DNA of 63,254 nt, the filler included. It is 5 parts of 5 records of this genome, joined end to end, with 100 filler letters (N's around TTAATTAATTAA, not from the genome) between each part and the next. Parts side by side here need not be neighbours in the genome. Positions count along the whole stretch, not along the records: positions 21,358 to 39,684 come from SRR31156797_180; 4 more parts are not named here. One strand, given 5' to 3'. Within the stretch, counting starts at the first letter, position 1. Each line of letters starts with the position of its first letter. The notes under the pieces are model-generated. The model was not told the origin of the DNA. It did no database searches and saw only the letters and a program-made list of their open reading frames with translations. Positions 26,382 to 44,182 of the stretch are shown in pieces. Position numbers and translations under genes: made by a program.

Positions 26382-27092
26382 TTAGTAACAATTCTGTTCT
26401 TTAGCTCTCAGTAATTTGTATTTCATTTCAGCGATTTTCCAGTCTTCTTCATTATCGATGTCCTGAACTTCCGACTCCGGCAAAATGATTGGGACTGTAT
26501 GCTCAGCGAAAAGCTTCATTTGATTTAGCAGGCTTTCTGTTTTCATACAATAGAACTGTCCACAATCATGATATGTTGGTGTCAAATCCTGCGATCGCTT
26601 TTCATAGTTTTGAGGCCAGAGCATTACTGCTCTGCTATTTTCTATCTTTAATGATCTTTGTATAGGATAACTATAGCATGTAACAGGTAGTACGCAATCA
26701 GCATCGGTTTTTTTAAGAAGTGCCATTGCTTCTTTAAGCCTTTCAGGCAAAACGAAAGGGGCTGTCGGGTAGACGCAACAAAGGTAATCATAGTGTTTTC
26801 CATCTTTTTTGTATTCCAGTATAACTTCTTTTAGAACATCGGCAGTGGTTGCAAAATCATTAGAGTTACTCTCTGATCTTAAAAATGGAATCTTTGCTCC
26901 ATACGATGCTGCAGTTTTTGCAATTTCCTCGTCATCTGTGGAAACCATTATTTCGTCAAAGCAGCCACATTCCAGTGCAGCATCAATTGAGTATTTTATT
27001 ATTGGCTGTCCGCAAAAAGATTTAATATTCTTTCGTGGTATCCTTTTACTTCCGCCTCTTGCAGGAATAATTGCTAAACAGGTTGGGTTAAT
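26382..27092 (-). CDS. pseF: Pseudaminic-acid-type CMP-nonulosonate cytidylyltransferase (apparent ATT start)
   Basis: Frame extends 48 codons upstream of the ORF-track start and contains AIIPARGGSKRIPRKNIK; also YPTAPF, RSQDL, YHDCGQFY, VQDIDNEEDW. Confidence 0.88.
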   Translation of the reverse strand: MNPTCLAIIPARGGSKRIPRKNIKSFCGQPIIKYSIDAALECGCFDEIMVSTDDEEIAKTAASYGAKIPFLRSESNSNDFATTADVLKEVILEYKKDGKHYDYLCCVYPTAPFVLPERLKEAMALLKKTDADCVLPVTCYSYPIQRSLKIENSRAVMLWPQNYEKRSQDLTPTYHDCGQFYCMKTESLLNQMKLFAEHTVPIILPESEVQDIDNEEDWKIAEMKYKLLRAKEQNCY

Positions 27093-27115
27093 TTCAATCT
27101 ACCTCTTCGATGATA

Positions 27116-27646
27116 TTATTTTTTTAATTCATTATCAAGAATACTATAATATAACGAGTCATGCCAATTGTCTTCAGACCAATGTGTTTGCCTGTGACGT
27201 CCTTCAAGTTTGAATCCAAGTTTTTCAAAAAAGTTAGTTTTTAAATTATCAAAGTCATAGATTTCGGCCCATAGTCTGTGTAATCCCAGTTCTCCAAAGG
27301 CATAGCTAGCCATTGTATTTCCTGCATCAGGTGCATATTTTTCGTCAATATACAGTTCATCAGCTCCGATATATATTGAAAAATCCGCATTTTTGTTGAT
27401 CCAGTCTATATAGCACAGTCCGCATGCTCCCAGCAACCGTTTTGTTTCCAGTTCCACTATGGAGAACATGATGGTTTTTGGATCTTTCATTACAACTTCT
27501 TCAAACCAGAAATTCTGGTTTTCCATGCTCAATTCGCGATATTCTCTGAAAAAACGTCTGAATTCCGGTCTGTTGCGGTATTCCATCAATAATGGTAAGT
27601 CTGAACGTTCAATTGCACGGAGTCCTGTAAATTTACCTCTTAACAT
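27116..27646 (-). CDS. GNAT (RimL/PseH-like) acetyltransferase
   Basis: LRAIERSDL, GACGLCYIDW.NKNA, AFGELGLHRLWAEIY, LGFKLEG. Confidence 0.85.
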   Translation of the reverse strand: MLRGKFTGLRAIERSDLPLLMEYRNRPEFRRFFREYRELSMENQNFWFEEVVMKDPKTIMFSIVELETKRLLGACGLCYIDWINKNADFSIYIGADELYIDEKYAPDAGNTMASYAFGELGLHRLWAEIYDFDNLKTNFFEKLGFKLEGRHRQTHWSEDNWHDSLYYSILDNELKK

Positions 27647-28758
27647 AGTAAGTCCTCTTCAATGTCTTTTTCAAAAAGAGCATCTCCTGCTAACTTTGGA
27701 GATTTCAGTTTTTTTCCGACAACCTTTTCTATATTATAAGGTTCAATGGCACCTTTTGGAGCAGGACGAAGAGATTTAAGATTGTCTCTATTAATCTGTT
27801 CTCCTGTTTTCATATCACGTGCCAACCTTAAGCAACGACGTTGAACTATTGCAGTATCTCTTTCATTTTGTTCAATCCGCTTTGTTCCGTCACCTAACGA
27901 GTTCTCAAGCTCACGACTACGTTCTACCATCTCTTTCCAGGTTTGAGGATTCATAGAAAACGCATGATCCGGTCCGACTCTGCTATTGTCATCGGTGAAA
28001 TGTTTTTCAATAACTCTGGCCCCAAGAGTAATGGCTCCAAGAACCGTGGCATGTAGTGGTGTATGATCTGAAAGGCCAATGACCATATTAGGATACTTGG
28101 TAGCAAATGTTTTGAGTACATTGAGATTAATGTATTGAAAATTCTCAAGACTTCCTGTGTAGTTTGTATTACACTGCAAAAGCACAAGTTGGGAATTGTG
28201 TTTCAGGACAGCTTCAACAGCTCTTTCCACATCGCTTATAGTAGATGCTCCGGTGGCCATTATTACAGGCTTTCCCTTTTTTGCAATCGTTTCAATAAAT
28301 TCAATCCAGGTTATGTCTCCAGATCCTATTTTATACGCCGGAATATACTTGTCAAGTAATTCCACAGCTTCTGCATCATATGGTGTGGTAAGGAAATCGA
28401 TTTTTGCTTCCTTGGCGGTTTTTGCCAGTTCTGTGGTCCAGTCCCTGTTGCATTCATACTGTTCATAGATTTCAAAAATGGTTTTGTCCCATGAGGCCTG
28501 ATGACTCATTTTGCTGCCAAGATGCTTAAAGCCATAGTCACTAACAATTTTTCCGGCTTTAAAATGCTGAAATTTGACTGCATCTGCTCCAGCATCTTTT
28601 GCAAGCCATATCAACTGTTTGGCACGTTCAATGTCACCATCATGGTTTGATGCAACATCTGCTATAAAATATGTAGGTGCAGAAATTGATATTTCCCTTT
28701 TTCCAATATATATCACATCATCATATCTCATTTTTGACATCTCCTTCATATTCTTCAA
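27640..28758 (-). CDS. Nonulosonic acid synthase, NeuB/PseI family with C-terminal SAF domain
   Basis: FIADVASNHDGD, AGADAVKFQ, YKIGSGD, GLSDHT, IEKHFT, GPDHAFS; true start may be a few codons downstream. Confidence 0.93.
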   Translation of the reverse strand: MKNMKEMSKMRYDDVIYIGKREISISAPTYFIADVASNHDGDIERAKQLIWLAKDAGADAVKFQHFKAGKIVSDYGFKHLGSKMSHQASWDKTIFEIYEQYECNRDWTTELAKTAKEAKIDFLTTPYDAEAVELLDKYIPAYKIGSGDITWIEFIETIAKKGKPVIMATGASTISDVERAVEAVLKHNSQLVLLQCNTNYTGSLENFQYINLNVLKTFATKYPNMVIGLSDHTPLHATVLGAITLGARVIEKHFTDDNSRVGPDHAFSMNPQTWKEMVERSRELENSLGDGTKRIEQNERDTAIVQRRCLRLARDMKTGEQINRDNLKSLRPAPKGAIEPYNIEKVVGKKLKSPKLAGDALFEKDIEEDLLC

Positions 28759-29605
28759 GAATACATGTAATTACATCATCCTGTGTAGGTAGTTTGTATC
28801 CCAGTATGCTCTCTGCCATTTCAACATCTAACCCATTACTCTCTGCTCTGATTATTTCTCCTCCTACTTCTATTAATCTGCCTGTGGCCGAGTTTGTCAG
28901 TTCAACACCCATTTTTTTCGCAAGAGCTGTTATGAACACCTTTTTGCTGGATACTTCCCTGCTTGCCAGGTTTAATACGCCTTTATGGTTTTTTTCGATA
29001 ATATCAAGCAGTGAAGATGAAAATTGTTTGACATGGATACTTGACGTAAAATAATCTTCAAAAAGAGTCATAGGAGTATTATTTTTTATATTTTCAATAA
29101 CCCATTCCACAAATGTAGATGTTCCTTCTTTATTGCGGAAGCCGACAATATTTGTACGGACTACCAGTGAATTAGGACAGGTCAATGCAAATTTCTCTGC
29201 AGCATATTTAGTTCTTGCATACTCATTTAGTAACCTGACAGGTTCATCTTCATTGTGCTTCAGGTTTCCATCACTTGTATAATAATGGTCAGTTGATATC
29301 TGGATGAAATAAAGATTATTTCTGGTTGCAATTTCGGAAATGATAGATGCAGGACGCGCGTTTACAATGTATGCATATTCTGGATTTTCTTCACATTCAT
29401 TCAGATTTACCAGTGCTGCGCAGTTAATTATGATATCAGGTTTTATCGATGTAATATTTTTTTCCAATGATTTTTTGTCAGCAACATCACAACTAATGTC
29501 TGTTCCACTGCGTGCTATTCCCACAACGTCCATACCACGCTCTTTTATTTCAAAAATCAGTGCCTGTCCCAGCAGACCAGTAGAACCTATGACTAAAGCT
29601 TTCAT
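28721..29605 (-). CDS. RmlD-like NDP-4-keto-6-deoxysugar reductase (extended SDR)
   Basis: GSTGLLG, INCAALV, ISTD, YARTK (YxxxK), VVRTN. Confidence 0.85.
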   Translation of the reverse strand: MKALVIGSTGLLGQALIFEIKERGMDVVGIARSGTDISCDVADKKSLEKNITSIKPDIIINCAALVNLNECEENPEYAYIVNARPASIISEIATRNNLYFIQISTDHYYTSDGNLKHNEDEPVRLLNEYARTKYAAEKFALTCPNSLVVRTNIVGFRNKEGTSTFVEWVIENIKNNTPMTLFEDYFTSSIHVKQFSSSLLDIIEKNHKGVLNLASREVSSKKVFITALAKKMGVELTNSATGRLIEVGGEIIRAESNGLDVEMAESILGYKLPTQDDVITCILEEYEGDVKNEI

Positions 29606-29751
29606 GCCTCTCTCTCTTTTACTTTATTAGTATTCATCCAATCTGTATGTCACAATAGTTCTGAATATTGATGGCCAGTTATTAACTCAATATATTTCAA
29701 CTCTTCAGGACATTAGTAATTTAATCGGTTTTTTGTCGTGACAAGAAATCA

Positions 29752-30150
29752 TTACACAACCTTATGTTGAATAGTATCTTCTTTATCTTCTGGATTTTTA
29801 CTGAACACTATCAAACTTGCCTCTTTATCAGATACATTAGTAACAGCATGAGCAACAAAAGGTGGTATATGAATCACTTCATACATGTCTGATTCACAAT
29901 CCATCATGATTTCTTCAAATTTACCGGAAATGACATCTTTTAACGATAATTTAATTTTTCCAGCTGCTAATGCAATCCACTCATCTTTCTTTTTATGATA
30001 ATGATTTGCTCTTGTTCTCTTTGGTTCAATTGATACTACATAGCTGTGTATGCAATTAAAAGGCTCATCATCATAGTTCATTGAGATTACTTCAGAAAGC
30101 CATCCATCATCTCTTTTATGCTTGAAGCGCGTTAGTTTTTCACATAACAT
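29752..30150 (-). CDS. Cupin (WxcM/CapF-C-like) sugar epimerase or isomerase
   Basis: DDGWLSE, RANHYHKKKDEW, IPPFVAHAV. Confidence 0.8.
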   Translation of the reverse strand: MLCEKLTRFKHKRDDGWLSEVISMNYDDEPFNCIHSYVVSIEPKRTRANHYHKKKDEWIALAAGKIKLSLKDVISGKFEEIMMDCESDMYEVIHIPPFVAHAVTNVSDKEASLIVFSKNPEDKEDTIQHKVV

Positions 30151-30156
30151 TGCATA

Positions 30157-31140
30157 TCATATCATTTTTTCAAAATCATCTTTAGTAAGCCATTCATCAT
30201 TAATGTCACTGGAGTAGCGATGGTTATCTGGAAGACTTTTTCCAGAATTTATAGTTTGCTTTTTCCAGAATGAGAATTCTGGTTCAATTATGAAGTAGTC
30301 AGAGAATTCTTTTGCATGTCTGGCTTCATCTTCTGTTATCATTATCTCGTGCAACTTTTCTCCAGGTCTGATTCCTGTAAATTCCTTTTTAGCTTCTGGA
30401 GCAATAGCTTCTGCAAGATCAGTTATTTTCATGCTAGGTATTTTTGGAACAAATACTTCCCCGCCATTCATTCTTTGAATAGAAGCAAGCACAAAATGAA
30501 CTCCCTGATCAAGTGTCAACCAAAAACGTGTCATTCTTTCGTCGGTTATTGTAAGGACACCTTCTTTTTTCTGCTCTTTAAAGAGAGGAATTACGCTTCC
30601 ACGGCTCCCAATTACATTTCCATATCTGACACAACTGAATTTTGTTCTTCTTTTACCAGTATAGGTGTTCCCCTGAATGAATAATTTCTCAGCAACCATT
30701 TTAGTTGCACCATAAAGATTTACAGGATGAACTGCTTTATCTGTACTTATTGCCATTACTCTTTCTACAGAATTGTCTATTGCAGCATCAATAACGTTTA
30801 CAGAGCCGTCTATATTTGTCTTGATAGCTTCTATTGGGTTATATTCGCATGCAGGCACCTGCTTTAATGCAGCAGCATGTACTACAATGTCAACTCCGTT
30901 CATTGCGCGATAAAGTCTTTCCTTGTCCCTTACATCACCTATAAGAAATCGTAATCTGTTGTCGTTGAATTCCTGCTGCATTTTGTATTGATTATATTCT
31001 CCTCTTGAATATATTCTTAAACTATTAGGATTGTGTTCCTTCAAAATAATTTCTGTAAATTTCTTTCCAAAAGAACCTGTTCCACCGGTAAGTAGAATAT
31101 TTTTCCCTTCAAATAAAGATCCGTCGATTATATCTTGCAT
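30157..31140 (-). CDS. pseB: UDP-N-acetylglucosamine 4,6-dehydratase (inverting)
   Basis: TGGTGSFG, HAAALKQVPACEYNP, STDKAV.PVNLYGATK, RYGNV.GSRGSV, MTRFW, GIRPGEKLHE. Confidence 0.92.
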   Translation of the reverse strand: MQDIIDGSLFEGKNILLTGGTGSFGKKFTEIILKEHNPNSLRIYSRGEYNQYKMQQEFNDNRLRFLIGDVRDKERLYRAMNGVDIVVHAAALKQVPACEYNPIEAIKTNIDGSVNVIDAAIDNSVERVMAISTDKAVHPVNLYGATKMVAEKLFIQGNTYTGKRRTKFSCVRYGNVIGSRGSVIPLFKEQKKEGVLTITDERMTRFWLTLDQGVHFVLASIQRMNGGEVFVPKIPSMKITDLAEAIAPEAKKEFTGIRPGEKLHEIMITEDEARHAKEFSDYFIIEPEFSFWKKQTINSGKSLPDNHRYSSDINDEWLTKDDFEKMI

Positions 31141-31316: not shown

Positions 31317-32240
31317 GTGTATGCAAAAATTGCAATTACGATTCGTTCTTTTTCTTCTATTGACTTAGTATCAGAATTACTTCAAGACCAGGGGACAGTT
31401 GTTTATGTAAATAAGTCTGGAAAGCGTCTTGAGGAAGATGAATTATGTCACATATTAAAGGATGTCAATGGAGTAATTGCCGGAACTGAAAAATTTAGTT
31501 CAAGAGTTTTTAATTCCTCACCTAACTTGCGCGTTGTATCTCGTGTAGGAGTAGGGATTGATAGCATTGATCAGAAGGCTGCTCAAAAAAATGACATATC
31601 TATATTGAATACTCCTGAAGCACCTGCGCTGGCAGTTGCAGAACATACCCTTGCGCTAACATTTGCAGTAATTAAAAGAATTGCGATGTATAACGAGAAT
31701 ATGCAAAAAGACGATTATACTATTGAATCTGGTTTATTGCTATCAGGTAGAACTATAGGAGTAATTGGTCTAGGAAGAGTGGGAAGAAGGGTTGCTGAAA
31801 TGTTTGAGGTGTTAGGTTGTAATATTCTCTTTTATGACCCTTTTTTACCTGATATTTTCATTTCAAACTGGAAACGTGCTACTTCACTTGACGATGTTTT
31901 ACAAAATGTAGATATTCTTACTTTGCATGTACCTTCTCAATCTGATGGCAAGCCTTTACTTGGTAACAAAGAATTCGATTTATGCAAACATGGTATGGTT
32001 CTTATTAATACTTCGCGAGGCTCACTTGTAGATGAGGATTCACTTGTAAAAGCAATTAAAAGTGGAATAATTTTGGGAGCAGGCTTAGATGTTTTTCCGG
32101 TTGAGCCATACAAAGGAAAACTCTTGGATTTTCCCCAGATAGTTACGACACCACATGTTGCTTCTAATACTGTGGAATCCAGACAACAAATGGAAAAGGA
32201 AGCGATTAATAATTTACTTATTAAATTGAGGGATCTGTGA
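31317..32240 (+). CDS. D-isomer-specific 2-hydroxyacid (phosphoglycerate-like) dehydrogenase
   Basis: SRVGVGIDSID, AVAEHT, GLGRVG, INTSRG, LDVF..EP, TPHVAS; no ACT domain. Confidence 0.88.
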   Translation: MYAKIAITIRSFSSIDLVSELLQDQGTVVYVNKSGKRLEEDELCHILKDVNGVIAGTEKFSSRVFNSSPNLRVVSRVGVGIDSIDQKAAQKNDISILNTPEAPALAVAEHTLALTFAVIKRIAMYNENMQKDDYTIESGLLLSGRTIGVIGLGRVGRRVAEMFEVLGCNILFYDPFLPDIFISNWKRATSLDDVLQNVDILTLHVPSQSDGKPLLGNKEFDLCKHGMVLINTSRGSLVDEDSLVKAIKSGIILGAGLDVFPVEPYKGKLLDFPQIVTTPHVASNTVESRQQMEKEAINNLLIKLRDL

Positions 32241-33151
32241 TGAAAAAAGCATTAGTTACAGGTGGAAATGGATTTTTGGGTCATCATATTGTAAGGGAAT
32301 TGTCTAATAGGGGAATTGAAACGATTGTTTATGATCTTGAAAGATCTTCTCTTATTGATGAAATGAGTGAAAATGCCCAAATCACATTTGTAAAAGGGAA
32401 CATTCTTGATAAAACAAAACTGGACTCTGCTATGGAAAGTTGCGATATTGTTTTCCATACTGCTGCCATTGCAAATCTGGAGGATGCATTACAACATCCA
32501 GTTGAGACAATGGAGGTAAATGTGGTGGGTACTGTTAATTGTCTCGAAGCTGCAAAAAAACATAAAGTTGATAGGTTTGTTTTTGCAAGTTCTGTCTATG
32601 TAGGTGGCAACTGGGGTACTTTTTATAGAATATCGAAACAAACTGGTGAGTCTCTTTGTAAAACATATTCTCGAGAATTTGATCTTGATTTCAGCATAAT
32701 TCGTTATGGAAGTCTTTATGGTAGGGAAGCTAATAATTGGAATTTCCTTTATGGTGTTCTGAAAAATCTATTGCTTAATAAAGAATACACTTACTATGGT
32801 TCTCCTGATTCTTTGCGTGAATATATACACATAGCTGATGCTGCTCGTGAAACTGTTAATATTGCTGCAAATGATGATTTTAGAAACAAAGCAGCATTAA
32901 TAACGGGGCATCAAAGAATGTCTCACAAAGAATTCTTCAATATGATACAGGAAATTCTTGGGCGTGATATCAAAATTTCATTTGAGAACAAAGAAAAAGA
33001 TAGCCATTATAAAATAACTCCTTATTCCTTTGAACCGGATATACCACTCAGGATCAATCTGGCTACTTATATTGACATCAATGAAGGTATCCTTGATTGC
33101 CTGAAAGAGGTGCAGATGGAGATTGAAAATGATAATTACAACAAAAACTGA
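32237..33151 (+). CDS. NAD-dependent epimerase/dehydratase (extended SDR)
   Basis: TGGNGFLG, FHTAA, FASS, YRISK (YxxxK), RYGSLYG, REYIH. Confidence 0.88.
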   Translation: MMKKALVTGGNGFLGHHIVRELSNRGIETIVYDLERSSLIDEMSENAQITFVKGNILDKTKLDSAMESCDIVFHTAAIANLEDALQHPVETMEVNVVGTVNCLEAAKKHKVDRFVFASSVYVGGNWGTFYRISKQTGESLCKTYSREFDLDFSIIRYGSLYGREANNWNFLYGVLKNLLLNKEYTYYGSPDSLREYIHIADAARETVNIAANDDFRNKAALITGHQRMSHKEFFNMIQEILGRDIKISFENKEKDSHYKITPYSFEPDIPLRINLATYIDINEGILDCLKEVQMEIENDNYNKN

Positions 33152-33914
33152 TGATAAACGGAGTCTAAAAAAGAAACTACAGAATAATGTTCTGACGATA
33201 GGTTCATGGATTACAATTGGCAATCCTGCTATCGCCGAGATTATGGCTCAAAGTGGGTTTGACTGGTTGACAGTTGATATGGAACACAGCGCTATTACTT
33301 TAAGTGAGGCACAGCAGTTAGTTCAGGTGATTGAATTATCTGGATGTGTTCCTCTTGTCCGTGTAGGTAGCAATGATCCAAATCTGATTAAACGTGTTAT
33401 GGATGCCGGTTCACATGGTGTTATTGTGCCAATGGTTAATTCTGCAAAAGATGCGGAGGCAGCAGTAAAAGCAGTAAAGTATCCACCTGTAGGCATGCGT
33501 GGTGTTGGTCTTGCAAGAGCTCAGGGATATGGAGTGGACTTTGAGAACTATAAAGATTGGGTTGAACAGGAAAGTATTGTTATAGTTCAGATAGAACACA
33601 TTGAAGCAGTCAGAAATATTGAGGAAATCCTATCAACAGAAGGTGTTGATGGATTTATCATTGGGCCTTATGATTTATCCGGTTCTCTAGGAATGCCAGG
33701 AGAGTTTAGTGAGCCAGAGGTTCTAGAGGCACTTGAAACTGTAAAAAGAGCAGCTAATAAAGTGAATATCATTTCTGGATTCCATGTTGTTCCTCCCGAA
33801 CCTAACCAACTAAAAGAAAAGATTAATGAAGGTTATCGCTTCTTGGCTTATAGTCTTGATTCATTGTTCTTAGCTGAAACCTGTCTCAAGGATTTGGCAG
33901 AAATCAAGAGTTAA
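33129..33914 (+). CDS. HpcH/HpaI-family pyruvate-dependent class II aldolase
   Basis: GFDWLTVDMEHS, PLVRV, KYPP.G.RG.G, QIEH, IGPYDLSGSLG. Confidence 0.92.
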   Translation: MIITTKTDDKRSLKKKLQNNVLTIGSWITIGNPAIAEIMAQSGFDWLTVDMEHSAITLSEAQQLVQVIELSGCVPLVRVGSNDPNLIKRVMDAGSHGVIVPMVNSAKDAEAAVKAVKYPPVGMRGVGLARAQGYGVDFENYKDWVEQESIVIVQIEHIEAVRNIEEILSTEGVDGFIIGPYDLSGSLGMPGEFSEPEVLEALETVKRAANKVNIISGFHVVPPEPNQLKEKINEGYRFLAYSLDSLFLAETCLKDLAEIKS

Positions 33915-33963
33915 AAAAGATTGTTCAAGAACTTTTATTGTCTTGAACTTCTATTTTTTAATG

Positions 33964-35463
33964 TTACATATATTGTTCTCTATATATCTCTGACAACTCT
34001 TCATATACACGGTTTCCTTCTTCATCAAACCTTTCAGCTCTTTCAATCGATGACCACTTTTCCTCTGGCATTTTTACATATAATGGAAATGTTCTCAATA
34101 ATCCATATAGTTCTTCACCTTTGATCTGAGGCATTTTCAGAGAAGACATCATTGAATGTTCCTGTGTAATATGTTCCTCTTTGATGTAACCTTCCTCAAC
34201 ACAAACTTCATGTAATTTTGTTCCCCTGAAAGGTGTGAAAATAAAGATGTTTAGGTCCTTTGCTTCGCAATCACGATTTAACCTGATAGTATCAAATATG
34301 TCTTCTCTTGTTTCCCCTGGCAGGCCTATCATATTGTTCGTGCCGTATTTGATGTCAAGCTCATTCAAAATATGTGTAGCTTTTTTTATGGTTTCATTTG
34401 AGACTTTCCTGTTAAGTACTTCCTGCCGTATCCTTTCATTTCCACTTTCGATTCCTATACTTAAACGGAAATCAAAACCATCCAGTATTTTTAGTTTGTC
34501 ATGGGTGATTGACTCCGGTCTTGTCTGGAAGAAAAATGGAAGATCAATTTCCTTGTATCTTTCCATGAAATCTCTCAGTCTTTTTTCAGGCATTGAAAGG
34601 AAAGATTCAGATGTAAAGTACACAAATTCCAGTCCATACTTCTCTTTTTGGTGTTTCAATTCTTCAAAGACTAACGATACATCCTTAAATCTTAGATATT
34701 TATTATCATACATTTTTCTGTATGATGATGCACAGCAAAATGTACAATTGTATGGGCAGCCTCTGCTGATTTCAATTGGAAGTGTTTTAAAAAGCTTTCC
34801 ACGGTTAGGTCTGTAGAACCTCTTTTCTTCGTAGATGGTAAAGTCTAGAAATGGTAGCTCATCAAGATCAACCAGTTCTCTCATTTGGTTTTTTTTAATT
34901 CCATTTTCAGATTTCAGCCATATGTTGGGAATATCTGAGATGTCTCTTTCCTCTAGCATTTTTTGGCACAATTCTACAATGGATTTTTCCCCTTCACCCA
35001 TACAAATCATATCTATGCAGTCATTAGCAAGCGTATCTTCTGGTGAAAATGAAGGAAAAGCTCCTCCTGCTAATGTCGGTATGTTCTGATCTTTTATCGT
35101 TTCTAATAGTCTCAGTGCAATTTCATATGTAACTTCGGTCATTGTTACAGCAATAAGGTGAGGTTTGTAGCTGTCGACCATTTTTTTGAAGTCCTCATAA
35201 ACATCAGTATCTTTGACTGTTATTCCCACTTCTGACATGTCCCATTTACGAAATTGTAAGAAGTCTGCCCTGATCTCATCACCGCTTTTCTCCTGAGTCC
35301 TGTAGAGTGTAGTGTCAAATAATTGTATGTTGTTGAACCCCGCCTTCTTCAGGCAAGCTGACAGAAGCGATAGGTTTATTGGCATCATGTTCTGCAACAT
35401 CACATTTGGATATACAAAGAGTATCCGAAAGTCGTCTTTATTGTATTCAGTCATAATTATCAC
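33964..35463 (-). CDS. Cobalamin-binding radical SAM enzyme (class B methyltransferase-like)
   Basis: N-terminal B12-binding region (GG.FPS..PE, GEGE); SRGCPYNCTFC (CxxxCxxC); GIESG, MIGLPGET, PFRGT. Confidence 0.9.
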   Translation of the reverse strand: MIIMTEYNKDDFRILFVYPNVMLQNMMPINLSLLSACLKKAGFNNIQLFDTTLYRTQEKSGDEIRADFLQFRKWDMSEVGITVKDTDVYEDFKKMVDSYKPHLIAVTMTEVTYEIALRLLETIKDQNIPTLAGGAFPSFSPEDTLANDCIDMICMGEGEKSIVELCQKMLEERDISDIPNIWLKSENGIKKNQMRELVDLDELPFLDFTIYEEKRFYRPNRGKLFKTLPIEISRGCPYNCTFCCASSYRKMYDNKYLRFKDVSLVFEELKHQKEKYGLEFVYFTSESFLSMPEKRLRDFMERYKEIDLPFFFQTRPESITHDKLKILDGFDFRLSIGIESGNERIRQEVLNRKVSNETIKKATHILNELDIKYGTNNMIGLPGETREDIFDTIRLNRDCEAKDLNIFIFTPFRGTKLHEVCVEEGYIKEEHITQEHSMMSSLKMPQIKGEELYGLLRTFPLYVKMPEEKWSSIERAERFDEEGNRVYEELSEIYREQYM

Positions 35464-35710
35464 ATGATTTCTTCAAGGACTGTCTGTTTTATCGTATCGT
35501 TCATATTTAATTCTGGTCATTACCTATATCTCTGGCTAACGTCTTAATCTTCTGACATGCATATTTGAAGATAGGTATTTATTTGTTAGATTATATTATT
35601 TAACTGAAACCGCTCGATATTGTTGAGGCCTTATGGCATATTTCTCATATCAACTGTTAGATTACAATCATTGAACTTAATAAATTCATCATTCACAAAA
35701 GTGATTATAA

Positions 35711-36409
35711 ATGCCCGACGATTACTCTGTAACTGCGCTGTTGCCAATGAAAGGACACAGTGAACGTGTACCATCAAAAAATACAAGGCTTTTTGGAAAA
35801 GACCCTTTGTTTTTCCATATATTAAGAAGTCTGGAGTCTGCAGAGTTGGTGAGGCAGATTCTGGTTGATACCGACAGTCCTAAAATTAGATCTTTAATAG
35901 AAGAAAACTTTTGTAACGTAGTGATAATTGAACGTCCTGAACATTTGTTGGGCGACAAAGTGCCTATGACTTCTATTATTGAATATGATCTTAATTATGT
36001 TGAAACAAGTCATTTTTTGCAAACACATGCCACGAACCCACTTCTTAGATCTGATACGATAGAAAATGCAATAAAATGTTATTTCGACGGACTGACAAGA
36101 GGTTTTGATTCTGTTATGAGTGTCTCTAAATTCCAAACAAGATTCTACGATCAAAACAAGAACCCTGTGAATCATGACCCTGACACTATGCTTCCTTCTC
36201 AGGATATGCCTCCTTTGTATGAGGACAACTCTAATTTCTATATCATGTCAGTTGAGAACTTTATGAAAGATAAAATACGCGTTGGAAAAAACCCTCTTTT
36301 TGTTGAAGTGCCTAAAATAGAAAGCATAGACATTGATGAACCGGAGGATTTTCTAATTGCTGAAGCAGTATATAAATTTATTTCAAACAAAGGGAACAAT
36401 GGATGTTAA
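35711..36409 (+). CDS. Second acylneuraminate/ulosonate cytidylyltransferase-family protein
   Basis: LLPMKGHSERVPSKN, VDTDS, QTHATNP, SQD, ENS-like DNSNFY, DIDEPEDF. Confidence 0.88.
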   Translation: MPDDYSVTALLPMKGHSERVPSKNTRLFGKDPLFFHILRSLESAELVRQILVDTDSPKIRSLIEENFCNVVIIERPEHLLGDKVPMTSIIEYDLNYVETSHFLQTHATNPLLRSDTIENAIKCYFDGLTRGFDSVMSVSKFQTRFYDQNKNPVNHDPDTMLPSQDMPPLYEDNSNFYIMSVENFMKDKIRVGKNPLFVEVPKIESIDIDEPEDFLIAEAVYKFISNKGNNGC

Positions 36410-36474
36410 TTTATTGGATAATAATTGATTTTGGCTTGTTGTTATCTACACTGGATTGATACATTTTTAGAGGG

Positions 36475-37452
36475 ATGATTATACTAATGGTGGCTTTTGA
36501 GAATTTCAGAATGGTTACAGAAAACATAGAAGGATACAAAGAGTTTAACATTGATCGTAACTGGTACAAGGATAGGAAAAAAGGCCTGTCTGCGGTTATA
36601 AGGTGTTTTGGTGATGAAAGGTGGATTGGTCCATGTATAGAAAGTTGCCTGCCTCTGTTTGATGAAATAGTTGTAGTCATTGTGAAAATAGAAGGTGATA
36701 GGACTGAGGAAATTGTGAGAAACTTCGATTCTCCAAAAATTAAGATTTACAATTATCCCTTTAGTTTAGATCAGGTTGAAGCACCTATTTATAAGAACAG
36801 AATCCAGCAAAAGATTGATTCCCTGTCCGAACTGTTTGTTTCTCCCAATTTTAAGAGAGGTTCGGTTCATACAATAAGCTATCTGACCAATTTCGGCATG
36901 TCAAAGACAACATTTTCCCATGTTACTCCTCAATGGGACGCGGACCACATACTAAGGCCTGAATTTGCAACAGAAGACTTCAAAGAATTTATTCTTTCCA
37001 AAGGTCATATCCGCGTTGCAGGATACAATGTAGTGACGGAAGATTATCAATATCTATCTGAAAGGTCTCCTATTCACAGTAGTCATCCTCGCTTTTATAA
37101 AGCTGATAAGCATTTGTACTTTGCTGGAAATAAGTATCTTCTGGATATTGTTTCATATCGCTCCTCTATAGTTCAGTTGAAAATGCTGGAGAATTATTTC
37201 CTTTTCCCAATCCAACAGATACTGTGCATGAAGAATTTGTTACTTAGAAGGGATGTTTCATATGATGAACCAATCTATTTCCATACCAAGTTCCTTCGTT
37301 CCGACAAAGAAATCGAGCATGATACTCGTTTTTTAAATGAAGAGTATCACAGGCAGTTCAAGGAAAATACTAAAAAAGGGAGAAAAATAGATGTTGAAGT
37401 ACCTGATTTTGCGCTAAAGGTACCTGAGGATTATTTAAGAAAAAACAGTTAA
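36475..37452 (+). CDS. GT-A-fold glycosyltransferase-like protein
   Basis: GLSAVIRC..DERWI..CIESCLPLFDEIVVV, DRTEEI, WDADH (DxD). Confidence 0.65.
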   Translation: MIILMVAFENFRMVTENIEGYKEFNIDRNWYKDRKKGLSAVIRCFGDERWIGPCIESCLPLFDEIVVVIVKIEGDRTEEIVRNFDSPKIKIYNYPFSLDQVEAPIYKNRIQQKIDSLSELFVSPNFKRGSVHTISYLTNFGMSKTTFSHVTPQWDADHILRPEFATEDFKEFILSKGHIRVAGYNVVTEDYQYLSERSPIHSSHPRFYKADKHLYFAGNKYLLDIVSYRSSIVQLKMLENYFLFPIQQILCMKNLLLRRDVSYDEPIYFHTKFLRSDKEIEHDTRFLNEEYHRQFKENTKKGRKIDVEVPDFALKVPEDYLRKNS

Positions 37453-37504
37453 AATATGATTAAAGATAATAATTGTTAATTTTTATTTATTACAAGGTAT
37501 TCAA

Positions 37505-38173
37505 ATGTCTTTAAATAGAAAATATCCAGTAGTAATATTAGATTTTGATGGAGTTATTTTGGAGTCTGTAGATGTGAAAACTGAAGCTTTCAGGCAGCTT
37601 TTTTCATTTTCTCCTGGCAGCGTTGATAAAGTTGTTAGTTTCCATGTAGAAAATGGTGGTATGTCAAGATTTGACAAGATTCAATACATATATGATAATA
37701 TATTATGTGAGTCCTTACATCAAGATAAATATGAATATTTATGCAATCAATTTTCCGAACTTGTGCTTAATGGTGTTTTAACTTCTAACTATGTTAATGG
37801 AGCTAAGGAATTTTTGGAGTTTTTTTCAAAATATACCTCTTTATTTTTGGTTTCAGCAACACCCATCTCTGAATTAATGCATATTCTTACTCAAAGAGAT
37901 TTACTTGGCTATTATGAAGGGATTTATGGTGCTCCCAGACCAAAAACAGAATGTATTGAAGAGATATTGTGCTTAAGTGATTTTTCAGAAAAAGATGCAA
38001 TTTTTGTAGGTGATGCATTGAATGATTATAAAGCTGCAAAAATGGCTGGTGTGCGTTTCATTGGTAGAGTAAAACCCGGTGGTATCAATATTTTTAAAGA
38101 TAAGGCTGATGTTGAAACTGTCGTTCATGATCTTCAGGAATTAAAAAAGTATTTGGAGGATTTATATTGCTAA
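37505..38173 (+). CDS. HAD-superfamily phosphatase
   Basis: Motif I DFDGVI, motif II VSAT, Lys, motif IV FVGDALND. Confidence 0.9.
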   Translation: MSLNRKYPVVILDFDGVILESVDVKTEAFRQLFSFSPGSVDKVVSFHVENGGMSRFDKIQYIYDNILCESLHQDKYEYLCNQFSELVLNGVLTSNYVNGAKEFLEFFSKYTSLFLVSATPISELMHILTQRDLLGYYEGIYGAPRPKTECIEEILCLSDFSEKDAIFVGDALNDYKAAKMAGVRFIGRVKPGGINIFKDKADVETVVHDLQELKKYLEDLYC

Positions 38174-38835
38174 TTCCAATTTCATATGCCCTAAATAAAA
38201 ATATTCCATTGTATCCTGGATCTCAGGATATTACATTTAAAAAGGTTAGGTCAATTGAAAATAATGAGTCTGCAAATGTTTCTGTATTTGTTTTCAGTAA
38301 TCATTCTGGAACCCATATTGATGCTCCGTTACATTTTTGCAATAAGGGTTATTCAGTAGCTGACGTTCTAACCATTAAAAATGATTATTTTCCTGCTGTT
38401 TGTATAGATATTCCTAAATATCCTAGTTCTCGGATCTGCAAAGAGGATATCGCTCCATTCTTAAAAAAAATTGTTGATGCAGAAGCAATTTTGATTAGGT
38501 CTGGCTTTTTTAGATACCGGAAAGAAGAACCTGATATATATAGCAATTCTCATCCTTGGGTTCATCCTGAAGTTCCCATTTACTTGAGGAAAAATTGTCC
38601 AAAACTAAAAATTATTGGTCTTGATACTATTTCCATTTCGAATCCATCACATCGAAAAGAAGGGCATACGGCACACAGGTCGTTTTTGTGCAATGACTCA
38701 CCAATACTATTACTCGAAGATGCAGATTTGTCAAACTCTGCTTTGTTGGATAGAGAGTTCGTTTTGCATATTTGTCCTTGGGTGATTGATGAGGTCGATG
38801 CAACACCAGTAATTGCTATGGCTGAACTCAAATGA
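38167..38835 (+). CDS. Cyclase (kynurenine formamidase-like) metal-dependent hydrolase
   Basis: HSGTHIDAPLHF (HxGTHxDxPxH), IGLDTIS, AHRSFL, LLED; GGAGG RBS with TTG start. Confidence 0.88.
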   Translation: MLIPISYALNKNIPLYPGSQDITFKKVRSIENNESANVSVFVFSNHSGTHIDAPLHFCNKGYSVADVLTIKNDYFPAVCIDIPKYPSSRICKEDIAPFLKKIVDAEAILIRSGFFRYRKEEPDIYSNSHPWVHPEVPIYLRKNCPKLKIIGLDTISISNPSHRKEGHTAHRSFLCNDSPILLLEDADLSNSALLDREFVLHICPWVIDEVDATPVIAMAELK

Positions 38836-38855: not shown

Positions 38856-39684
38856 TTAAGAGTTGTATACATTTTCGTATACTTCTATCGTTCTTTTAGT
38901 TGTCTTCTCCCATGAAAATAATTTAGCTCTTTCCAACCCTCTGTGTATCAATTTTTCTTTAAGGTCATCATTTGTCAGTATTTTGTACATACTAGTAGTC
39001 CATTCATCGATCTTATTAGGGTTTGCTAAAATTCCTGCATCTGCTACAACCTCAGGTAAAGCACCAACATTGGATGCAATTACAGGACATCCACAGGCCA
39101 TTGCTTCCAATGGGGGAAGACCAAAACCCTCATACCATGAAGGACGGATGTAAATTTCGGCTGTATTATACAGCTTCACCATCTCTTCATCAGAAACTCT
39201 TCCTGCAAAGATGATGTCATTGCTTAATCCCAGATCAGCAATCATTTCTTCAAGTTCCACTCTCTTGAAAGAAGTCACATTTCCCGAACCAAAGATGACT
39301 AATTTGATGTTAACACCTTTTTTTCTTAATCGATGGTACATTTCAATAATATCAGAGCGAATGTTATCTGATAAAATAAAAGGCGCACCAATATATTCCG
39401 GTATATCCATTTTTATTTGCTTGAACCTATCATGAGGTGCAGAATATATTGTTTCTATCTTTTCTTCGGGAACTTTCAGAAACTTAACCATGTCTTGTTT
39501 TGTATTATTGGATACGGCTATAAATTTATCAACATTGTTTCTGATAGCAAACAGGGTTTTTCTCCACAACACATCATGCATCCACAGTTTTGAATTATGG
39601 TATAATTTTGTCTGATATCTAGGAAGGAATTTGTATAGATCGTGAATTGTCATTACTTTTTTAAATCCATTCTGAAGAAAAAAA
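38856..39684 (-). CDS. GT4 glycosyltransferase (5' end truncated)
   Basis: TIHDL, IAVS, YEGFGLPPLEAMACGCPVI, FSWEKT. Confidence 0.92.
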
Positions 39685-39784
39685 NNNNNNNNNNNNNNNN
39701 NNNNNNNNNNNNNNNNNNNNNNNNNNNNTTAATTAATTAANNNNNNNNNNNNNNNNNNNNNNNNNNNNNNNNNNNNNNNNNNNN
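39685..39784. other. Artificial contig spacer
   Basis: 44 N + TTAATTAATTAA + 44 N. Confidence 0.98.
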
Positions 39785-39785
39785 T

Positions 39786-40787
39786 GGATGTTCTAAAAAC
39801 TGTATGCACCATGAAATCCAAGATGTTAGTTTCAATGCTGTAAAACAAGAGAATGGAAGAATCCAATTTGCAGTAAGTGTTGGTGGTGGTTTAGCTTCAA
39901 ATAAAAGAGTTGCTAATCATATTGGATATGTTACACCATCACAAGTTGTTCCAGCAGCAAAAGCTATTACTAAGATCTATAGAGACCATGGATTAAGAGA
40001 AAAAAGAAATAAAGCTAGACTTGGACACTTAATTGAAGAGTGGGGAATTGAAAAGTTTGTTGAAGAGTTACAAGCTTCTTTAACATTTAAAATCAAAGAG
40101 CCAAATGAGATTGAATATACAAGCTCAAGATTTAGAGAGCACTTTGGAATTCACCAAAGTAAACAAAAAGGTAAAAGCTATATTGGGTGTGCATTAAACT
40201 CTGGACACATTGGGGTTGAGGGATTAAATGACCTAATTGAACTATTTGAAAAATATGGAGCAACTGCACTTAAATCTACAGTTACTCAAAATATTATCAT
40301 CTTAGATGCAAATAGTGATACTGCTGAAGAGTTTGCTAAAGAATTAGAGAAAGTTAATATTTATCCATACCCATCTAACTTTAGAGCAAGAGTTCAAGCA
40401 TGTACAGGTATTGACTTCTGTAAATTTGCCATTTCGGAAACAAAAGGTGTTGCAAAAAGATTAGTTGACCACTTAGAAAACAAATTCCCTGACTTTGGAG
40501 AAAGAGTTTCTATTTCTGTAAATGGTTGTCCTAACTCTTGTGCTCACCCACATATTGTTGACCTTGGTTTTATGGGAACAAAAGTTAAAAAAGATGGAAA
40601 AACTGTTACTGGTTTTGAACTTCTTGTTGGTGGTTTCCTTGAAGGTGACAAGTCTCAATTTAACCAAAAGACTGGAATCAAATTTGCAGTTGAAGATGTA
40701 AATGAAAATGTTGAAGAGATTATAAATGAATATATAGCTTCTGAACATTCTTCATTCCATGATTTCATCATTACAAAAGCGAAATAG
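39786..40787 (+). CDS. Siroheme/[4Fe-4S] nitrite/sulfite reductase, C-terminal half (5' truncated)
   Basis: VGGGL, R.KARL, ACTGIDFC and NGCPNSC cluster ligands. Confidence 0.9.
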   Translation, partial: GCSKNCMHHEIQDVSFNAVKQENGRIQFAVSVGGGLASNKRVANHIGYVTPSQVVPAAKAITKIYRDHGLREKRNKARLGHLIEEWGIEKFVEELQASLTFKIKEPNEIEYTSSRFREHFGIHQSKQKGKSYIGCALNSGHIGVEGLNDLIELFEKYGATALKSTVTQNIIILDANSDTAEEFAKELEKVNIYPYPSNFRARVQACTGIDFCKFAISETKGVAKRLVDHLENKFPDFGERVSISVNGCPNSCAHPHIVDLGFMGTKVKKDGKTVTGFELLVGGFLEGDKSQFNQKTGIKFAVEDVNENVEEIINEYIASEHSSFHDFIITKAK

Positions 40788-42607: not shown

Positions 42608-42985
42608 CTACCTTTTATCAAACTCTTTTGCAAAGCCTTCAAGATCTTTTTTCTTTAAATCACCTCTATACACAATTTGGTCAGCAGGAATATCTTCATT
42701 TAACATTTTTGGAACAACATCTGCATCATTTAATACATCCATATGCTCATCTAATTCATCCTCACTATAAGCCATTTGCATATCAGCACTTACAATATGA
42801 GGAATAGCTTCTATAACTCTTAGTTTTTCAAGCTCTTCTTGTACACCATTTCCTTCTATTGTAACGATAACTCTTCCTACTTCATCATGAAGATGATATT
42901 CACACACTTCACATTTTTTTAATGCTTCTACAACCTCATCTAAATACTCTGGTCTTGTTTGAACTACGATACTTGAAATATTCAT
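42608..42985 (-). CDS. napD: NapA chaperone NapD
   Basis: MNISSIVV, G.VIVTIEG; ATGA overlap with napL stop. Confidence 0.9.
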   Translation of the reverse strand: MNISSIVVQTRPEYLDEVVEALKKCEVCEYHLHDEVGRVIVTIEGNGVQEELEKLRVIEAIPHIVSADMQMAYSEDELDEHMDVLNDADVVPKMLNEDIPADQIVYRGDLKKKDLEGFAKEFDKR

Positions 42986-43929
42986 TTTAATCTCCAAAAA
43001 TTTATTGTTTGACTATCACTACTTGCAAAAATCTCTTTATCTGATATAAATAGAATCTGCGTCAAAGTAGCATCTTGTCCAATTAGTTTATATAAATACT
43101 TTTTACTGCTTGTATTAAACACTAAAATTTCATTCTCCTCATTATATGCAATTGCACCATACTTAGCATTTTTGCTTAAAGCACAACTATAAAGAAGAAA
43201 ATCAAAATTTAGTGCATATGAGCTAAAACTATCATAGAAAACTGCTTTTCTATCTTGTCCTGCTGTTAATACTTTTCCCTTTTTAAAATCTAGTTGATAA
43301 ACCCTATCTAGGTTTAAAGCCTTTAATCTCTTTTCAACTACTAAATCACTTGTTTTTAATACTCTTATTACTCCACTCTCATCTGTAGTAATTAACTTAC
43401 TTCTATTCTCATTTAATGCAAAATGTGAAAAAGAGGATTGGCTAACTTGTGTTAGAACTGTTACCTCATTTTTTTCTATATCAAAAATTCCAATCTGATT
43501 ACTAAGAAGAGCAAATACTATTCTTGTATCACTTACAAAAGATGCCTTTTGAATAAAAAACTTTTTCTCTATTCCGATTAGCTTCTTTAACTCTTCATTT
43601 TCATATATCCAAAGGTTTCTATACCCTTTCATCCCCTGAGTTACTATTAGTATTTTGTCCTCTATTAAATCAATAGAATAAACCTTTGCAGGAATTGTAT
43701 CTCCCATAAAGTCTTTTATCTTTGGAAGTTCTATTGTTTTAATTATCTTTTTCTCTTTAGTATCAAAGACTTCTACAGTTCCATTAGCTGTCCCTGCATA
43801 TAAAAGTTCATCTTTATATACTATTCCTTGAACTGCACCTGTTGCTTTTAAAGAGTATGTAGGAGTTACTTCCTCTAAAGCAAAACATGACACTACTAAG
43901 ATAAAAAAAGATAAAAAAAGTTTACTCAT
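42982..43929 (-). CDS. napL: Periplasmic beta-propeller nitrate reductase accessory protein NapL
   Basis: Signal peptide, WD40-like repeats (LPKIKDFMGD, AGQDRK); position between napF and napD. Confidence 0.8.
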   Translation of the reverse strand: MSKLFLSFFILVVSCFALEEVTPTYSLKATGAVQGIVYKDELLYAGTANGTVEVFDTKEKKIIKTIELPKIKDFMGDTIPAKVYSIDLIEDKILIVTQGMKGYRNLWIYENEELKKLIGIEKKFFIQKASFVSDTRIVFALLSNQIGIFDIEKNEVTVLTQVSQSSFSHFALNENRSKLITTDESGVIRVLKTSDLVVEKRLKALNLDRVYQLDFKKGKVLTAGQDRKAVFYDSFSSYALNFDFLLYSCALSKNAKYGAIAYNEENEILVFNTSSKKYLYKLIGQDATLTQILFISDKEIFASSDSQTINFWRLK

Positions 43930-44182
43930 CTAAATCCAAGTCCTCTTTTATTTTTGCCATTTGTTGATGTAGTTCATAAAAGTGTTCATCTGTCACATCA
44001 TCATCTTTTGACCATTGAACTTCTATATCTGAACCATAATCTTCACTCATAAGAGCTAACTGTTTTGAGAAGTCTTCCATATCTTGACAGATAACTTGTC
44101 TTGTATCTTCTGTATCAGTTAATCTAATAACCCAAGTATCATTATCTGACTCTTCTACATTTGCTGTAAATATTGTTGGCAT
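43922..44182 (-). CDS. Hypothetical acidic protein (86 aa) inside the nap operon
   Basis: Start abuts napF stop, stop overlaps napL start; AAGGAG RBS; 25 of 86 residues are D/E. Confidence 0.75.
   Translation of the reverse strand: MPTIFTANVEESDNDTWVIRLTDTEDTRQVICQDMEDFSKQLALMSEDYGSDIEVQWSKDDDVTDEHFYELHQQMAKIKEDLDLDE

Follow-up and report, generated by a model that had tools for sequence, protein, structure and literature searches.

Acidic keto-sugars such as Kdo (3-deoxy-D-manno-octulosonate) and the sialic, pseudaminic, and legionaminic acids stand at the tips of microbial surface glycans and govern recognition by phages, immune systems, and lectins. All routes to these sugars that we know of use a phosphoenolpyruvate (PEP)-dependent synthase, and genome mining for them looks for NeuB or KdsA. 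Here, we analyze a stretch of 63,254 nucleotides, filler included (the window), and in it a gene cassette at positions 31317 to 38835 (record SRR31156797_180) that probably encodes a PEP-synthase-independent route to a cytidine monophosphate (CMP)-activated 2-ulosonic acid for a surface glycan. In this organism, that glycan is probably the product of N-glycosylation by AglB, whose gene lies on the same contig.

The CMP-Kdo pathway (KdsD, KdsA, KdsC, and KdsB; KpsF/KpsU for capsules) follows the logic proposed here for the cassette, in that a three-carbon keto-acid unit is joined to a sugar-phosphate aldehyde, a haloacid dehalogenase (HAD) enzyme removes the phosphate, and a CTP_transf_3 enzyme activates the product. 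Unlike that pathway, the cassette contains no KdsA/DAHP-synthase-type or other PEP-utilizing synthase, and its putative C-C bond former is a class II aldolase of the HpcH family. Its phosphatase is of the HAD-IA and not the KdsC type, and its cytidylyltransferase matches no KdsB model. The cassette also adds a conserved 2-hydroxyacid dehydrogenase, a short-chain dehydrogenase/reductase (SDR), and a hydrolase, and it is found in archaea as well, which have no lipopolysaccharide. The nonulosonate pathways, leading to pseudaminic (Pse), legionaminic (Leg), N-acetylneuraminic (Neu5Ac), and 3-deoxy-D-glycero-D-galacto-nonulosonic (Kdn) acids through NeuB and NeuA, PseF, or LegF, resemble the cassette in gathering a nucleotide-sugar-type SDR, a hydrolase, a condensing enzyme, and a cytidylyltransferase in one locus. 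The MptE/DUF115-like, GT29-like, and polysialyltransferase-like candidates that accompany the cassette in other genomes are, moreover, of kinds linked to nonulosonates. The cassette differs from these pathways in that 42 of 44 loci have no NeuB-like gene, that its cytidylyltransferase scores below the PseF cutoff, and that the conserved set includes neither an aminotransferase nor an N-acetyltransferase.

Seven plus-strand open reading frames (ORFs), each where an earlier note on this DNA had placed it, are present, and they match their families far beyond chance, with E values from 2e-14 to 3e-46 (Pfam and NCBIfam); the exception is F, which has no match in either collection and was assigned by fold. 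An eighth gene, D, lies on the opposite strand between C and E and was absent from the gene list of that note. The genes are as follows:

31317 to 32240, plus strand: A, D-2-hydroxyacid dehydrogenase, phosphoglycerate dehydrogenase (PGDH)-like, 307 amino acids (PF02826 and PF00389; 2-Hacid_dh_C, E value 2.7e-46)
32237 to 33151, plus strand: B, extended SDR, 304 amino acids (PF01370, Epimerase family, E value 5e-41)
33123 to 33914, plus strand: C, HpcH/HpaI class II (metal-dependent) pyruvate-type aldolase, 263 amino acids (PF03328, E value 1e-39)
33964 to 35463, minus strand: D, B12-binding radical S-adenosylmethionine (SAM) enzyme, 499 amino acids (PF02310 and PF04055)
35711 to 36409, plus strand: E, CTP_transf_3 cytidylyltransferase, 232 amino acids (PF02348, E value 1.6e-18)
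36475 to 37452, plus strand: F, glycosyltransferase-like protein of GT-A fold with a DxD motif, 325 amino acids (predicted fold)
37505 to 38173, plus strand: G, HAD-IA phosphatase, 222 amino acids (PF13419, HAD_2, E value 2e-14; PF00702)
38167 to 38835, plus strand: H, cyclase-family metal hydrolase, 222 amino acids (PF04199, E value 6e-19), overlapping G by 7 bases

A, B, and C overlap one another, as do G and H.

A locus search with E, taking one genome per species, returned 79 loci, all of which were compared with the window proteins by tblastn; their ORFs, which are simple longest-ORF calls, were clustered. Sampling thus started from E, and the counts describe the neighborhood of E and not that of the other genes. 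We call cassette loci the 44 in which the cytidylyltransferase shares 42% identity or more with E. In 33 of these, a single strand carries E, C, A, G, and B, with a span of 4.4 to 6.3 kb in 32 of the 33, and C shares the strand of E in 39 of the 44, starting at most 1.5 kb downstream of it in 38 (at most 100 bases in 19). Counted by family over 46 sources (the 44 cassette loci, locus L078, and the window), the E family is represented in 44, the SDR family containing B (which also holds other SDRs of the loci) in 40, the C family in 39, the A family in 38, the G family in 37, and the H family in 26. Hosts comprise Flavobacteriales, other Bacteroidota, Campylobacterota, Desulfobacterota, Deferribacterota, two gammaproteobacteria, and a Methanomethylovorans metagenome-assembled genome (Methanosarcinaceae), and the neighboring genes encode glycosyltransferases, Wzx- and Wzy-like proteins, ABC-2/Wzt exporters, acyltransferases, and methyltransferases, including O-methyltransferases. 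E occurs in 7 of 151 sampled Methanosarcinaceae genomes, with the rest of the cassette nearby in 6 of the 7, and in two Methanococcoides-type genomes (L089 and L090) the cassette lies a few kilobases from AglB. The earlier note had proposed an inspection of the cytidylyltransferase neighborhood, in which a set that fell apart in other genomes would speak against a common pathway; instead, the genes form a co-directional operon in many phyla.

In the reading that we favor, C would join pyruvate or hydroxypyruvate to a phosphorylated sugar aldehyde, G would then take the phosphate off, E would make the CMP-sugar, and a CMP-sugar transferase would use the product of E. The aldolase route would thereby stand in for KdsA and NeuB, the PEP-dependent synthases of the known Kdo and nonulosonate routes. 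A most likely supplies the 2-keto-acid donor of C, e.g., hydroxypyruvate made from 3-phosphoglycerate or glycerate, B and H probably form a tailoring pair that carries out an oxidation or epimerization followed by ester or lactone hydrolysis, and D may further modify the sugar in Methanolobus. We observe the gene families, their conservation, fusions, and replacements by sequence comparison and structure prediction, whereas the chemical steps, and any statement on the size or stereochemistry of the sugar, are inferred. The chain that is best linked, namely, aldolase, phosphatase, cytidylyltransferase, and then a sialyltransferase-like or DUF115-like transferase, would also copy the logic of the Neu5Ac-9-phosphate and Kdn-9-phosphate routes, with a class II pyruvate-type aldolase instead of a PEP-dependent synthase.

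The proposed condensing enzyme, C, starts at a TTG codon that overlaps B and scores 136.6 bits against PF03328 (cutoff, 25). Its alignment with YfaU and HpaI covers the whole protein and includes the DxEH, VR, QIE, and GPxDLS stretches. The His of DMEH, the Arg of LVRV, the Glu of VQIE, and the Asp of GPYDLS match the same residues in YfaU/HpaI, and we take their catalytic roles to be those of the HpaI/YfaU active site. A dehydrogenase, a lactonase, and an HpcH aldolase together are a pattern of oxidative sugar catabolism, and C has its nearest characterized relatives in catabolism, namely, HpaI, GarL, and RhmA/YfaU, so that a sugar-acid pathway of the Entner-Doudoroff or the rhamnonate/glucarate kind could be imagined that merely lies beside glycan genes. 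We regard this as highly improbable, because the anchor gene is a cytidylyltransferase, because every annotated locus is a polysaccharide or glycosylation locus, and because fusions to a cytidylyltransferase or a GT29-like domain would make no sense in catabolism; nor is there a conserved dehydratase, kinase, or transporter, and the carriers include methanogens. C shares its fold and active-site residues with the catabolic aldolases and with their hydroxypyruvate-using relatives (PDB 6r62), and it matches solved members of the HpcH family, some of them deposited as hydroxyketoacid aldolases, at 114 to 152 bits. It differs from the catabolic enzymes in falling below all three equivalog cutoffs, for HpaI, GarL, and RhmA (188 versus 368.8, 168 versus 393, 166 versus 406.8, and 158 versus 441; NCBIfam), in being adjacent or fused to a cytidylyltransferase, and in having no partner dehydratase or hydratase.

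The cytidylyltransferase E matches PF02348 over residues 9 to 182 (67.8 bits; cutoff, 22.6) and carries “PMKGHSERVPSKN,” the motif quoted in the earlier note. Among Pfam and NCBIfam models, it otherwise matches only PseF, and weakly (TIGR03584, 79.8 bits versus a cutoff of 205.7). It is distantly related to solved CMP-Neu5Ac synthetases (E value 1.5e-9), and the protein atlas returns only generic “acylneuraminate cytidylyltransferase” clusters. A PseF-type gene proper is located elsewhere on the contig (26382 to 26948; 219.7 bits against the same TIGR03584 cutoff of 205.7), and the two proteins align only over a 68-residue C-terminal stretch with 35% identity, in agreement with the earlier claim of a second, different cytidylyltransferase. 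To judge from these comparisons, E belongs to a distinct CTP_transf_3 subfamily. Since C keeps its active-site residues, E is not a PseF, and the contig has a separate PseF-type gene, the cassette would make and activate a 2-ulosonic acid of its own.

When the window's NeuB was used as a tblastn query up to 10 kb either side of the cassette, NeuB-like genes (E value up to 1e-3) were found in only 2 of the 44 cassette loci and in none of 35 Firmicutes-type loci (see below), which argues that E is independent of a NeuB-made nonulosonate. The earlier note had considered that E might use the nonulosonate of PseF beside a purely catabolic aldolase; the scarcity of NeuB and the placement of the aldolase next to, or fused with, the cytidylyltransferase point the other way. 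At the thresholds used, no KdsA-type synthase was found among the 18 large nonoverlapping ORFs of the contig (short opposite-strand ORFs inside them were unscanned), and the only PEP-dependent synthase in that set is the NeuB-family gene of the neighboring operon.

This operon includes PseB (30157 to 31140, minus strand; TIGR03589, 519 bits versus a cutoff of 408), from which the cassette is divergent as previously described, and it gives rise to another explanation, in which the cassette tailors the neighboring Pse-like nonulosonate or provides a hydroxy-acid (glyceroyl-type) substituent, with E as a second activating enzyme for the modified nonulosonate. The cassette adjoins PseB-like genes in the window, L031, L087, L088, and L091, and a NeuB-like gene is also present in L031 and L091. 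The serine pathway starts and ends with enzymes that A and G resemble, and the two could give glycerate or hydroxypyruvate; N-glyceroyl nonulosonates are known in bacteria. The SugarBase preprint mentions 2,3-di-O-methylglyceroyl forms. We nevertheless consider such tailoring quite improbable, because the cassette usually lacks NeuB within the range searched; the conserved set, in addition, has no acyl-activating enzyme, acyl carrier, or N-acyltransferase, and the aldolase-cytidylyltransferase fusion points to a direct link between substrate and product.

The Pse-like operon itself (26382 to 31140, minus strand) encodes PseB, a small cupin (FdtA/WbcJ-like), an RmlD-like reductase, a NeuB-family synthase that scores below both the NeuB and the PseI cutoffs, a GNAT protein, and PseF. 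No aminotransferase (PseC) or PseG was found in it, and its nonulosonate may thus differ from canonical pseudaminic acid. The PseF-type gene (26382 to 27010, minus strand) encodes 188 amino acids from the first ATG, and its frame is open upstream through “IIPARGGSKRIPRKN”; the upstream stop lies only about 10 codons before “IIPARGGSKRIPRKN,” with no ATG, GTG, or TTG between, so that either an unusual start codon is used or the start has been lost.

The link between aldolase and cytidylyltransferase is also seen in gene fusions and replacements. In polysaccharide loci, the aldolase is located directly after the cytidylyltransferase, and in protein P0152 an E-like cytidylyltransferase (51% identity) is followed by a C-like aldolase (50%) in one polypeptide. 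Proteins P0155 and P0158 carry a GT29 sialyltransferase-family domain ahead of the E-like cytidylyltransferase, and P0153 is a histidine phosphatase fused to a cytidylyltransferase. The fusions to an HpcH aldolase and to a GT29-family domain lend indirect support to a putative role of E in the CTP-dependent coupling of CMP to a 2-keto sugar acid. Of 34 Firmicutes-type loci scanned, 32 had a called cytidylyltransferase ORF (E-like, 32 to 37% identity), and in 28 of these 32 a 527-amino-acid HMGL-like protein, whose best models are 4-hydroxy-2-oxovalerate aldolases, is encoded directly downstream. An MptE/DUF115-like gene is present in 19 of the Firmicutes-type loci, a polysialyltransferase-like gene in 7, and a 2-keto-3-deoxygluconate (KDG)-kinase-like gene in 15. 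The bacteroidete locus L010 similarly combines E and a G-type HAD phosphatase with an HMGL-like protein. A pyruvate-aldolase family unrelated to HpcH can thus take the place of C. We also note a compact set in gut and rumen Firmicutes (L046 to L063), consisting of an MptE/DUF115-like gene, the E-like cytidylyltransferase, a DmpG/HMGL-like aldolase, and a PfkB that resembles KDG kinases and scores 547 bits against the kinase portion of a KHG/KDPG aldolase-kinase fusion model; this set may represent a flagellin or capsule sugar pathway.

A further recurrent partner is a YhcH/DUF386 gene, found in or beside the cassette in 17 of the 46 sources and, in Bacteroidota, between E and C; the window's own copy is without it. 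According to a published study, YhcH is an anomerase that interconverts the ring and open forms of Neu5Ac, giving the NanA aldolase its open form (PMC8141875). Sialic acid catabolism thus also pairs a pyruvate aldolase acting on a 2-keto sugar acid with YhcH, although NanA is a class I enzyme and the cassette aldolase is a class II HpcH. Because the context of the cassette is biosynthetic, the aldolase and YhcH would here run in the synthetic, ring-closing direction. The slot between E and C, which holds D in the window, holds a SAM methyltransferase in several bacterial copies; several loci have FkbM- or Methyltransf_24-type genes there or in the interval that separates the lactonase-type gene from G. 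D itself exceeds the cutoffs of PF02310 (52.6 versus 32.1 bits) and PF04055 (95.5 versus 29.5 bits), reaches no NCBIfam equivalog cutoff, and is kept at the same place in two related genomes, L087 (89%) and L088 (85%).

A had been described as a SerA-like dehydrogenase without an ACT domain, and this holds: PGDH is its nearest model, and it has no ACT domain. Its score of 222 bits against TIGR01327 (cutoff, 454) is low partly because the regulatory domains are missing, and the closest solved chain is 1wwk, a short phosphoglycerate dehydrogenase of 307 amino acids (E value 7e-55). A accompanies the HpcH-type but not the HMGL-type aldolase, which would suit the maker of a special keto-acid donor such as hydroxypyruvate. 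G has a weak phosphoglycolate-phosphatase match (NCBIfam). The predicted structure of B (predicted local distance difference test [pLDDT], 87) has as its top Foldseek matches UDP-glucose/N-acetylglucosamine 4-epimerases and UDP-uronate decarboxylases, with template modeling (TM) scores of 0.75 to 0.80, and Y130, K134, R194, H198, and D201, which include an Arg-x3-His-x2-Asp stretch, are invariant across 36 orthologues. This nucleotide-sugar-enzyme fold, together with the two loci that have only E and B, favors a B that acts on a nucleotide-linked sugar, after which H or its replacement would hydrolyze the ester or lactone. H contains the sequence HSGTHIDAPLH, and its closest solved chain is a kynurenine formamidase (E value 1e-15); it belongs to PF04199 and not to the 6-phosphogluconolactonase family (TIGR01198). 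In nine Bacteroidota-type loci, the gene after B is a member of that latter (Pgl) family in place of H, with 160 to 162 bits versus a cutoff of 124, and this position suggests an equivalent function.

It is on these replacements that a third explanation turns, in which a 2-keto-aldonic acid (e.g., 2-keto-gluconate) is made by oxidation and without C-C bond formation. B would oxidize a sugar phosphate to the lactone, H or Pgl would open it to the aldonate phosphate, A would oxidize C2, G would dephosphorylate, and E would activate, so that the aldolase homologue would merely epimerize, isomerize, or trim the 2-keto acid. In keeping with such a route, the Pgl-type protein that replaces H in nine loci is above its equivalog cutoff and always directly follows B, and wherever B and either hydrolase are both present they are adjacent in this order, with the window and L031 as exceptions. 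Two loci, L014 and L092, show no aldolase in the available sequence and retain H, A, E, and a classical SDR, which by canonical family functions form a complete set. The 2-ketogluconate(-6-phosphate) reductases belong to the family of A as well. L019 lacks B and H, and its genome has Zwf, a possible source of 6-phosphogluconate. When four genomes were compared for G6PD_C, it was found in G003 (cassette without B/H) and in G004 (with B/H) and not in G001 and G002 (with B and H/Pgl), so that only three of four are as predicted if Zwf makes B and H dispensable. Nor does an oxidative route explain why E and C, the best-linked pair, stand side by side in 38 of 44 loci and form a single protein in P0152, or why an unrelated pyruvate-aldolase should replace C. 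C keeps its full aldolase active site, and the B model resembles nucleotide-sugar epimerases and decarboxylases, not known sugar-phosphate 1-dehydrogenases. We therefore judge the oxidative route unlikely. A more specific assignment of B as an Azf-like glucose-6-phosphate dehydrogenase working with the lactonase was set aside except as part of the oxidative route, since the Azf model covers the Rossmann part only (51 bits) and the fold is that of nucleotide-sugar enzymes.

For the aldolase-based synthesis that we favor, the transferase is the step on which our reading departs from the earlier proposal. The AlphaFold model of F (pLDDT, 90) has a GT-A fold, and Foldseek matches it to the GT2-type 6p61, SunS, SpsA, and TarS with probability 1.0 and E values of 1e-6 to 1e-4, at TM scores of only 0.34 to 0.43. 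W154, D155, and D157, comprising the DxD motif, are invariant in 31 sequences, which are all the detectable members of this small family. DxD GT-A enzymes normally take nucleoside diphosphate (NDP)-sugars and are atypical for CMP donors, and F follows E only in four Methanolobus/Methanomethylovorans-type copies (the window, L031, L087, and L088); the suggestion that F transfers the CMP-sugar is therefore not supported. The PEP-synthase-independent CMP-ulosonate route put forward in the same note is supported by the co-occurrence of the genes, the rarity of NeuB, and the adjacency and fusion of E and C.

Elsewhere, the cassette is accompanied by MptE/DUF115-like or GT29-like transferase candidates. 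In addition, a family of 381 to 434 amino acids, with no Pfam or NCBIfam match, is encoded between E and C in Deferribacterota and Methanococcoides-type genomes (46 to 48% identity between archaea and bacteria) and is a candidate dedicated transferase, better linked to the cassette than F; on the cassette contig of the window, this family is absent. Its members, with “TGPSF” and “GADGR” stretches, are exemplified by the following:

L089, 8815 to 10092, minus strand: member of the 381- to 434-amino-acid family
L033, 10663 to 11808: member of the same family
L004, 14095 to 15399: member of the same family

On the cassette contig, tblastn detected neither the f8 family nor MptE-like candidate transferases (best E value, 0.03), and with that query genomes G058, G007, G001, and G061 gave no match either. 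Next to PseF, a 489-amino-acid protein (24811 to 26280, minus strand) weakly matches a BFO_1060-family glycosyltransferase model (E value 1.5e-8) and Capsule_synth of the KpsC/KpsS type (E value 7.6e-6). It is a candidate ulosonic-acid transferase and has no similarity to the cassette-linked families without annotation.

Several observations weigh against an aldolase-built CMP-ulosonic acid and temper our confidence. HpcH enzymes are mostly known from catabolism, and for none of the carriers has an enzyme activity, a metabolite, or a glycan structure been described. To A, B, and H, three of the seven genes on the forward strand, no testable step is assigned, and the only glycosyltransferase inside the operon here is F, with its fold untypical for CMP-sugar donors. 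Replacement of H by a true Pgl-type lactonase is easier to reconcile with an oxidative branch from aldose to aldonate than with a route by aldolase alone. Finally, five cassette loci are without C: L010 and L027 have E and a HAD protein, L014 has E together with H and A, and in L022 and L024 E is accompanied by B alone. The variant in L014 (10766 to 14247) recurs in L092 (6444 to 10477) as an H-type hydrolase, a cytidylyltransferase, an A-type dehydrogenase, and a classical FabG-like SDR, located in Wzt-type ABC-exporter loci with FkbM methyltransferases; no aldolase or HAD gene was found in the available sequence of either locus. From L014, L092, L022, and L024 it follows that the E family is not always in need of a C-type aldolase.

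With regard to genomic origin, the window consists of five concatenated contigs, with four joints of the form N44-TTAATTAATTAA-N44 at 14320 to 14419, 21258 to 21357, 39685 to 39784, and 45596 to 45695 (scan of the whole stretch; 39560 to 39900 read directly). The features that bound the cassette contig are as follows:

21258 to 21357, no strand: artificial joint, left end of the archaeal contig, cutting the 3' end of STT3/AglB
21358 to 23539, minus strand: STT3/AglB (PF02516 and PF22627), 3' end cut by the contig end
38856 to 39684, minus strand: I, GT4 glycosyltransferase (PF00534 and PF13439, matched only from profile position 102)
39685 to 39784, no strand: artificial joint, right end of the archaeal contig

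The cassette, the Pse-like genes, and STT3/AglB all lie on this single 18.3-kb Methanolobus-like contig (21358 to 39684), and the placement of the cassette in the same aglB island therefore stands. The N terminus of gene I is cut by the contig end, the linker starting at 39685, and the homologous stretch in L087 is 91% identical. L087, from a Methanosarcinaceae genome, is collinear over 10 kb at 84% DNA identity and 80 to 94% protein identity, radical-SAM gene included. The closest named relative of F is a hypothetical protein of Methanolobus tindarius DSM 2278 (90% identity), and a protein of Methanolobus sp. ZRKC5 shares 80% identity with E. On these similarities, the contig is judged to be archaeal. 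The other contigs carry bacterial-looking genes (a napB-napF-like-WD40-napD run, a TonB-dependent receptor, sigma-54 regulators, and DUF4857), and the receptor matches a Flavobacterium gene at 37% identity, with no homologue in the three Methanosarcinaceae genomes compared. The bin is thus mixed, genes on opposite sides of a joint are not neighbors, and the earlier description of the DNA as archaeal applies to the cassette contig and not to the window as a whole. Two truncations are explained by the joints: with its contig starting at 39785, a NirA-like gene (39804 to 40787) lacks the first ~196 residues, and the nap run (within 42608 to 45299) is without napA/G/H because its contig ends at 45595.

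Full-text searches, whose coverage leaves out most subscription journals, returned no paper in which an HpcH or pyruvate aldolase leads to a CMP-sugar, and in the literature found the cassette is a widespread gene set without a described pathway. What this window contributes is a setting in archaeal N-glycosylation, the exchanges between Pgl and cyclase and between HpcH and HMGL, the variants that lack an aldolase, and the fusions with GT29 and phosphatase domains. Annotations in a study of Leptospira (10.1101/771931) include a 6-phosphogluconolactonase, an HpcH-type aldolase, and a cytidylyltransferase in an rfb-adjacent locus, which may be a related cassette. The SugarBase preprint, in the sections available, reports new CMP-linked keto acids in Magnetospirillum and there draws no link to cassette genes. 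We also followed a hexulosonic acid side branch of the Escherichia coli K3 capsule, mentioned in 10.1101/2025.01.29.635457. The terms “hexulosonic,” “aldolase,” and “cytidylyltransferase” are absent from the main text of a capsule-typing paper (PMC13171606), and related terms are absent from nine supplements; blastn with the L019 gammaproteobacterial cassette (3 kb) found no match in 20,395 E. coli records. This lead was dropped, though not disproved.

Whether the cassette stands for a third general way to CMP-activated acidic keto-sugars seems to us evenly balanced. Such a way would combine a class II HpcH-type or interchangeable DmpG/HMGL-type aldolase with a phosphatase and a dedicated cytidylyltransferase subfamily, and it would yield a new ulosonic acid, distinct from Kdo and from the nonulosonates, for surface glycans in many bacterial phyla and, next to AglB, for archaeal N-glycans. 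The proposal is directly testable, since some carriers are in culture, among them Flavobacterium akiainvivens IK-1 (L042), Polaribacter septentrionalilitoris ANORD1 (L043), and Facilibium subflavum (L019), and the enzymes look small and soluble. If it is true, a new set of cytidylyltransferases, aldolases, and transferases would become available for glyco-engineering, and a whole class of surface sugars, in hosts that include Flavobacteria, Campylobacterota, Deferribacteres, sulfate reducers, gut Firmicutes, and methanogens, would be invisible to current annotation.

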